A stretch of DNA of 4,479 nt. Source: a virus (lineage: Duplodnaviria > Heunggongvirae > Uroviricota > Caudoviricetes). The translations under genes were made by a program, and so were the position numbers. The first letter of the stretch is position 1. Every line of letters starts with the position of its first letter. Of the stretch, positions 1,398-4,479 are shown piece by piece. The notes below the pieces were generated by a model. It had not been told where the DNA came from. It was given only the letters and a program-made list of their open reading frames with translations, and ran no database searches. The stretch is from IMG/VR virus record IMGVR_UViG_2703718781_000003, one strand, 5' to 3'.

Positions 1398-1622
1398 ATG
1401 AAGAAATTACTGGTAACCGTAAAGCCTTTTCAGGGAACAATTCCGTTCCGTATTTTGCAGCGTGGTCGTGTTCTTGTTGAAGGTTCGTTCAGTGGTAAAT
1501 GTACGCAATTACACTCCCGGACCTTTCAGGTGAATGCCACGAATGAAGAGCTAACCGTTGAGTGTACGATGAATGCCGCTAAATGCCGTATGGTATCGGC
1601 TGCATTACAGCCAGTGTGTTGA
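1398..1622 (+). CDS. Hypothetical small protein (74 aa, 4 Cys), moron-like gene between Rz1 and cos
   Basis: ATG at 1398 has GGAGA 6 nt upstream and sits 23 nt after the Rz stop. Translation is MKKLLVTVKPFQGTIPFRILQRGRVLVEGSFSGKCTQLHSRTFQVNATNEELTVECTMNAAKCRMVSAALQPVC. It shows no resemblance to lambda Bor. It occupies the Rz-to-cos interval, where lambda carries accessory genes such as bor. Confidence 0.5.
   Translation: MKKLLVTVKPFQGTIPFRILQRGRVLVEGSFSGKCTQLHSRTFQVNATNEELTVECTMNAAKCRMVSAALQPVC

Positions 1623-2588: not shown

Positions 2589-2614
<26 letters not shown>
2069..2614 (+). CDS. Nu1: Terminase small subunit (gpNu1 family); N-terminal DNA-binding domain diverged from lambda, C-terminal two thirds near-identical to lambda Nu1
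   Basis: Translation [36 protein letters not shown]... then ...[60 protein letters not shown]...LSEYIEQSD. From ASEADLQPG onward it matches lambda Nu1 as remembered. TGA stop at 2612-2614. Confidence 0.95.

Positions 2615-4479
<1,865 letters not shown>

Follow-up and report, generated by a model that had tools for sequence, protein, structure and literature searches.

A conserved small gene between the spanin genes and cos of a lambda-like prophage encodes a predicted stand-alone beta-sandwich domain

What is encoded by the small open reading frame (ORF) that lies between the spanin genes and the cohesive-end site of a lambda-like phage, in the interval where lambda carries bor? The question is raised by a 4,479-nucleotide (nt) stretch of viral DNA (Caudoviricetes; IMG/VR record IMGVR_UViG_2703718781_000003), which is referred to in its full length as the window. 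An original prediction, made from the letters alone, had described a 74-amino-acid (aa) ORF at positions 1398-1622 as an accessory gene in the Rz-to-cos slot, with a ribosome-binding site, four cysteines and no signal peptide. It had further suggested a moron, perhaps a small zinc-binding fold, with a role in host interaction or anti-defence. We find that 1398-1622 is a real accessory gene under purifying selection. Its product is predicted with confidence to be a compact, single-domain, six-stranded beta-sandwich, is cytoplasmic, and is a member of PHROG 2571 in a stand-alone-domain form. Tentatively, it may be a binding module that is made late in infection and used in conflict between phage and host or between phages.

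The gene and its ribosome-binding site are placed as the original prediction had it:

1398-1622, + strand, target ORF of 74 aa, with ATG at 1398-1400 and TGA at 1620-1622; protein MKKLLVTVKPFQGTIPFRILQRGRVLVEGSFSGKCTQLHSRTFQVNATNEELTVECTMNAAKCRMVSAALQPVC
1389-1393, + strand, Shine-Dalgarno sequence GGAGA, with GGAG at 1389-1392 and a spacing of 5 nt to the ATG of the ORF

An upstream TTG at 1380 is an alternative start that would give a product of 80 aa; the ATG at 1398 is preferred because every homologue begins with MKK(L). The GGAG/GGGG-N5-ATG layout is kept in homologous loci of E. coli, Salmonella and Shiga toxin (Stx) phages. The window holds 45 ORFs of at least 30 aa, and the target ORF by itself is not beyond chance; it is its conservation that places it beyond chance.

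Exact or near-exact versions of the gene are found in 1139 of 5426 complete E. coli genomes (21%), with up to five copies per genome, and these copies are annotated as ‘hypothetical protein’. The exact full-length 74-aa protein is present on more than 1000 contigs (UniRef A0A0D6ZJZ6), and 66 protein clusters with identities down to 56% were recovered from E. coli and Salmonella. A profile search of 1.84 billion representative proteins gave 49 matches with identities down to about 25%, the remote relatives at 25-40% identity being located in other enterobacterial prophages. The protein-level conservation in related phages on which the original prediction had staked itself was found. Two of the profile-search matches, P0081 and P0085 (a 4004-aa protein and a 394-aa repeat protein), were rejected as spurious, as their ‘DGKVLVGG’ repeat resembles ‘QRGRVLVEG’. 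The ratio of non-synonymous to synonymous substitution rates (dN/dS) is 0.26-0.29, the value against the 76%-identical copy of phage Stx2_EH2201 being 0.29, and comparison with the copy in phage PPyecE_EH1910 gave four synonymous differences and no non-synonymous ones.

Among 50,697 phage records 28 carry the gene, and 15 of these are Stx2c-converting phages. The ORF recurs unchanged in E. coli O145 RM9872, in a late region that opens with a NanS-p-type esterase, and is called there by the Prokaryotic Genome Annotation Pipeline (PGAP) as coding sequence WP_000735655.1, ‘hypothetical protein’. The ORF was left unannotated in phage ASU11 (ON416862.2, 23426-23647) and in most Stx2c-converting phage records, at 76-100% protein identity. 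In database entries P0114, P0115 and P0117 the ORF is joined to the +1 frame of the downstream spacer, probably through a frameshift. A literature search found no paper on the gene. The protein is thus already in databases as a hypothetical one, and a small late-operon accessory gene of lambdoid phages will not surprise a specialist.

The protein has a mass of 8.2 kDa, an isoelectric point (pI) of 9.7 and four cysteines (C35, C56, C63 and C74). Its maximal 19-residue Kyte-Doolittle hydropathy is only 0.76, against 1.9 and 2.9 in two upstream membrane ORFs, and it is on this ground that the protein is taken to be without a signal peptide, as originally proposed, or a transmembrane segment; no lipobox was identified in it either. 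An AlphaFold2 model built from a 28-sequence alignment (predicted local distance difference test score, pLDDT, 90.1; predicted template modelling score, pTM, 0.76) shows six beta strands (2-8, 11-21, 24-35, 39-45, 52-56 and 66-71) and one short helix. Structure prediction, which had been proposed as a check for a zinc-binding or small-fold domain, accordingly returned an ordinary beta-sandwich.

The family to which the protein belongs is PHROG 2571, of unknown function, which is matched by protein residues 1-73 (phrog_2571, E 2.8e-28, 99.9 bits). The match covers profile positions 100-172 of 291, which correspond to the beta-sandwich core and not to the full-length architecture. The profile is modelled on a form of 280-286 aa with a coiled-coil N-terminus, the beta-sandwich domain and a C-terminal domain, and protein P0074 spans its positions 1-291. 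The relatives are mostly stand-alone proteins of 72-82 aa; the remote stand-alone members P0106 and P0112 match PHROG 2571 as well, and so do the long forms. In these longer proteins of 117-286 aa (a 286-aa protein of PhiR46_1, P0068, P0073, P0075 and P0103) the domain is embedded and joined to unrelated N- or C-terminal extensions, which in the PhiR46_1 protein are a coiled-coil N-terminus and an extra C-terminal domain. Positions conserved in the family are M1, V6, F17, Q21, G33, K34, Y43, V45 and A68.

None of these positions is a cysteine, and the 32-member family alignment contains no invariant one. C35 is replaced by T, A, S, V or I across the family and C56 mostly by His in distant members, while C63 and C74 are confined to one subclade, the sister subclade having C38 instead. 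Distant members lack cysteines, and the PhiR46_1 long form has none at the aligned positions. Because no cysteine is conserved family-wide, it is unlikely that zinc binding or disulfides define the fold; judged from the alignment, the four cysteines that the original prediction rightly counted appear to be a clade-level detail and not the basis of the fold.

The function had been called unknown, and no characterised relative was retrieved from PADLOC, the PDB or Foldseek. Scans of the protein against Pfam (E up to 1) and NCBIfam identified no family, Bor included, in agreement with the lack of resemblance to Bor noted at the outset. Sequence searches of the PDB with the family profile, the long forms and a partner protein described below gave no match, and Foldseek searches of the PDB and BFVD gave no significant fold match (E >= 0.08). 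With PADLOC the protein matched 0 families, and its relatives had chance-level matches only. In these scans the protein thus has no match to Bor, to a gpJ Pfam domain or to a catalogued defence or anti-defence family.

About a dozen independent genomic contexts of the family were examined. In all but one of them the family member is located between the lysis cassette and the terminase genes, with any type of terminase, and the exception is one Salmonella clade whose gene has the Q antiterminator on one side and the holin on the other, in the slot used by stx. The family is therefore housed in two classic late-operon cargo slots, the lysis-terminase interval and the Q-holin interval. The packaging modules found behind the former slot are of the types Nu1/GpA, DUF1441/GpA, HNH with Terminase_4/TerL, HNH with Terminase_2/TerL, and Mu_F/portal_3. 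In the close clade, which comprises enterobacterial members with at least 56% identity, the gene follows Rz/Rz1 in every examined locus. Rz and the gene are mostly 23 nt apart; they overlap by 4 bp in Stx2_EH2201 and are spaced by about 440 nt in one E. coli lineage (loci L016-L018). The downstream packaging modules are lambda Nu1/GpA, HNH with Terminase_4/TerL, and HNH with another small terminase. Genomes of Citrobacter and Salmonella, contigs from metagenomes and read archives, and phage mEp237 have distant members in the lysis-terminase interval. The corresponding interval of lambda holds bor, p78 and p79 and no family member.

In six contexts a second, conserved small gene with a 67-73-aa product, phrog_4280, is located directly 3' of the family member, as in gp60-gp61 of mEp237 (L022:3434-3960). 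Its product has a weak match to DUF7457 (E 0.0017). Neither this partner nor a decayed remnant of it was detected by tblastn 3' of the window ORF. The two-gene cassette (loci L005-L010, L014, L022 and L027-L028) is the usual arrangement of family members and is often followed by a ‘YPEYFP’ protein with a tail-tip-fibre-like motif. Salmonella prophages carry an Acb2/Tad1-like gene (PF24729, E 6.1e-17) immediately upstream of the family member, and KilA-N/ORF11CD3 genes are found near some members. In one Salmonella prophage (L008:4650-8618) a large cargo island lies between Rz and an HNH/terminase module, with the order KilA-N, Acb2/Tad1-like gene, family member, phrog_4280, tail-tip-motif protein, a 485-aa protein and a 194-aa protein; the 485-aa protein is glycosyltransferase-like by inspection, with no Pfam match on record. 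In PhiR46_1 (L004:3109-5134) the 286-aa long form is encoded between a DUF4406 gene (nucleoside 2-deoxyribosyltransferase-like) and a 149-aa gene whose product is membrane-protein-like by inspection, all of them between Rz and Nu1.

The window itself is the late region of a lambda-like, Stx-phage-type prophage, and around the target ORF it has the following order:

ending at 421, C-terminal part of a lysozyme-type endolysin (PF00959)
545/578-760, small hydrophobic ORF of 60-71 aa with a C-terminal transmembrane segment (phrog_1115; hypothetical in PGAP)
773-904, small hydrophobic ORF of 43 aa, hydrophobic nearly throughout (phrog_4906; hypothetical in PGAP)
916-1374, + strand, Rz, the i-spanin (PF03245, E 1.2e-39)
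1127-1333, + strand, Rz1, inside Rz (PF06085, E 6.9e-21)
1623-1881, no strand, non-coding spacer of about 260 nt from the ORF to cosN
1882-1893, + strand, lambda-type cosN with the 12-nt cohesive-end sequence GGGCGGCGACCT, a single exact match with 0 expected in shuffles
2069-2614, Nu1 (PF07471, E 5.9e-91)
2589-4295, large terminase, beyond which a gpW-like gene begins

With Rz upstream, cosN downstream and variable presence among phages, the gene does occupy the Rz-to-cos slot as an accessory gene. Whether it is also a moron depends on its transcription, as a moron is an independently expressed insert in a phage operon (PMC2629481). The comparative part of this definition applies: the gene is variably present at the same position in related phages, being found in 28 phage records and not in lambda, and its GC content of 45.8% is a dip of about 9 points against the 54.5-55.2% of the flanks (Rz and the downstream spacer). 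For independent expression no sign was found: consensus scanning identified no sigma-70-like promoter within 1200-2100 and no terminator flanking the ORF. Because of this, and because the ORF starts 23 nt after the stop codon of Rz and overlaps Rz by 4 bp in Stx2_EH2201, it looks to be part of the Q-dependent late transcript. The gene would then be transcribed from pR' together with the lysis, packaging and morphogenesis genes. Of the two halves of the moron definition the gene thus matches the comparative one alone, and it reads as a late-operon passenger rather than as a lysogen-expressed moron of the Bor kind.

On this basis we propose, with well under even confidence, that the family supplies a cytoplasmic binding module that is made late and serves in conflicts of phage with host or of phage with phage. 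The domain would be a compact protein-binding module made late in infection, and would most likely neutralise or redirect a factor of the host or of a competitor, serving counter-defence or inter-phage competition at late-stage events. Its partner in many phages would be the phrog_4280 protein encoded directly downstream; in the window it would act alone. It would be neither a zinc or disulfide protein by design nor an envelope factor like Bor. A binding role in late conflict is suggested by the unrelated fusions, by a net charge that seems to vary, by the partner that many phages dedicate to it, and by cargo slots beside genes of anti-defence and antirepressor type. The charge was compared by inspection, the window protein having its pI of 9.7 and the distant P0106 being rich in Asp and Glu; because net charge looks non-conserved, a generic nucleic-acid binder is argued against. 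An anti-defence role, as originally suggested, is possible from the genomic context (one Acb2-like neighbour) and not from homology. The Acb2/Tad1 sponges (PF24729) are, like the window protein, small late-region accessory proteins of prophages; they share no sequence or fold similarity with it, an Acb2/Tad1 hairpin domain standing against an all-beta sandwich, and the link between them is one of neighbourhood in one context.

Several points weigh against this proposal. The Acb2-like neighbour occurs in only one of the roughly dozen contexts and in one lineage. Homology gives no support for a conflict role, either from PADLOC or from Pfam anti-defence families such as Acb2/Tad1, and no expression or phenotype data on the gene were found in the literature. 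Characterised anti-defence genes are more often expressed early, and late expression of the present gene is itself something that we infer. The tight linkage with Rz in the close clade could mean a lysis-related role, and weak gpJ-like signals point to a virion-related one. Our confidence is kept low because the contextual evidence is thin, with Acb2 adjacency in one lineage, and is not backed by homology.

The gpJ-like signals concern an explanation that we consider unlikely, namely that the protein is a virion or tail-tip accessory, free-standing but related to the C-terminal receptor-binding beta-sandwich of lambda gpJ. It would be a late-made host-range adaptor of the tail tip, or a soluble domain that binds a receptor or glycan once lysis has set it free. 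As a search for lambda gpJ homologues gave only relatives with 82-100% identity, a more diverse profile of the gpJ C-terminus was rebuilt from phage records. When the family was compared with the lambda gpJ domains, the C-terminal receptor-binding domain (RBD; PF12421) gave the sole profile-profile signal above background, with scores of 25.6 (P 3.8e-4) and 24.7 (P 1.4e-3) from two independent shallow gpJ profiles; the same 44-45 columns were aligned each time, and both scores exceeded all 90 column-shuffle controls (maximum 18.4). P0075 joins a tail-tip-fibre-like motif (PF09327, E 0.0017) directly to the domain, in the same order as in gpJ, several prophages encode a protein with the same motif two genes downstream of the family member, and being expressed late with no export signal is in keeping with a virion component. 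The top Foldseek matches in the PDB, none of them significant, are lectins and carbohydrate-binding modules. However, the hhalign probability of the RBD match is only 17-36%, which does not establish the similarity statistically, Pfam hmmscan of the window protein identified no gpJ domain, and BLASTP of P0075 and of the neighbouring protein against gpJ was not significant. Lambda does not have the gene, which is therefore dispensable for lambda-type virions, and the linkage in the close clade is with the lysis module and not with a tail module. The gpJ RBD (Ig_GpJ_C; 8IYK) is moreover the tip of a 1132-aa trimeric fibre, whereas the window protein is a free cytoplasmic protein of 74 aa. That the family is an outright free-standing descendant of the gpJ RBD, a detachable tail-tip host-range adaptor or a soluble decoy, is quite improbable. 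Such a decoy, released at lysis, could for example keep progeny off debris or block competitors. Adaptor or decoy, it would in many phages have the phrog_4280 protein and the neighbouring protein with the tail-tip motif as partners. Another gpJ domain, FNIII-A_GpJ (PF24801), was considered and ruled out: five of 32 members matched it below threshold (best E 0.02; gathering 27 bits) and the window protein not at all, and hhalign against lambda gpJ residues 80-215 gave a probability of 1.3%.

The constant position of the close-clade gene after Rz/Rz1, in front of packaging modules of at least three types, would also be expected of a lysis-cassette auxiliary that is co-inherited with Rz/Rz1 and acts in the cytoplasm to adjust the timing of lysis or the output of spanin, holin or endolysin. 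We think this improbable: in more distant relatives other genes intervene between the member and Rz, or the member precedes the holin beside Q; nothing directs the protein to the membrane or periplasm, while the envelope is where spanins and holins work; and lysis proceeds without the gene in lambda and in most Stx1a and Stx2a phages. A lysogen-expressed moron like bor, or a cysteine-dependent zinc or disulfide mini-protein, with a host-interaction role such as serum resistance, is very unlikely. Bor is a lipoprotein involved in serum resistance and is expressed in lysogens. The slot is shared with bor, the GC dip is typical of inserted genes, C35 and C56 are near-invariant in the close clade, and C63 and C74 co-occur. 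Yet bor lies on the opposite strand of lambda, while the window ORF is co-oriented with the late operon and contiguous with Rz, with no promoter- or terminator-like site of its own; the protein lacks the lipobox, the signal peptide and any sequence or Pfam match to Bor, and for want of an export signal a role like that of Bor in the envelope or in serum resistance is unlikely. The absence of any family-wide cysteine, seen also in the PhiR46_1 long form, and the confidently predicted ordinary beta-sandwich tell against the mini-protein. Finally, that the ORF has no function or is decaying, and is simply carried along with Rz, has hardly any likelihood. The window does lack the phrog_4280 partner that is common among relatives, the partner looks degenerate in one E. 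coli lineage, and many database entries are truncated; the low dN/dS, the exclusively synonymous differences between two phages, the full-length form on its many contigs and in a fifth of complete E. coli genomes, the conserved ribosome-binding site and the high-confidence fold model all speak for a maintained gene.

The best experimental handle on the family is gp60 of mEp237 (YP_007111433, hypothetical protein), because it is a family member in a cultured lambdoid phage. This 81-aa protein is encoded directly after an Rz-like spanin near the right end of the genome, and is roughly 30-40% identical to the window protein, as taken from the family alignment and not from a pairwise comparison. 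It differs from the window protein in having no cysteine at the aligned positions and in having the phrog_4280 partner, gp61, directly behind it, a gene that is absent from the window. A gene that roughly one in five complete E. coli genomes carries, Stx-converting phages included, and so far called ‘hypothetical’ or left unannotated, is now defined as a member of a domain family with a confidently predicted fold, under purifying selection, with a fixed address between the lysis and packaging genes and a recurrent partner. An anonymous ORF has thereby become an easily tested gene, with gp60-gp61 of mEp237 at hand. Should counter-defence or tail-tip adaptation prove to be its role, it would represent a new small-protein family in phage-host conflict in medically relevant phages; if not, it is one among many small accessory genes of lambdoid phages.

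Other parts of the window were of interest in their own right. The segment between the endolysin gene and Rz (578/545-904) has a GC content of 44.5% against 54.5% in its flanks. This gap is a second cargo slot in the lysis cassette, because other phages hold an antirepressor-like or a different hypothetical gene there. Within the large terminase gene 83 undetermined bases (N, 3210-3292) represent an assembly or masking gap and not biology. Between cosN and nu1, where lambda has cosB, a terminator-like hairpin of nine pairs with a T-rich tail is found at 2006-2028; it overlaps a chance-level Rfam miRNA match on the opposite strand.

The spacer downstream of the ORF was considered as a structured RNA and rejected, as 1623-1860 had no Rfam match and a fold z-score of 0.37. 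Its final 50 nt or so match the right end of lambda, and the 42 nt directly 5' of cosN (1830-1871) do so with 93% identity. The part at about 1640-1820 is a conserved non-coding module common to other lambdoid phages, as determined by blastn and alignment, with about 80-97% identity across phages with differing flanking genes (L014:5158-5276, L001-L003). Two copies of this module are present in PhiR46_1 (L004:3468-3643 and 5248-5580), each bordering an Rz-to-cos accessory gene. The module looks like a conserved linker that could mediate exchange of cassettes by recombination.
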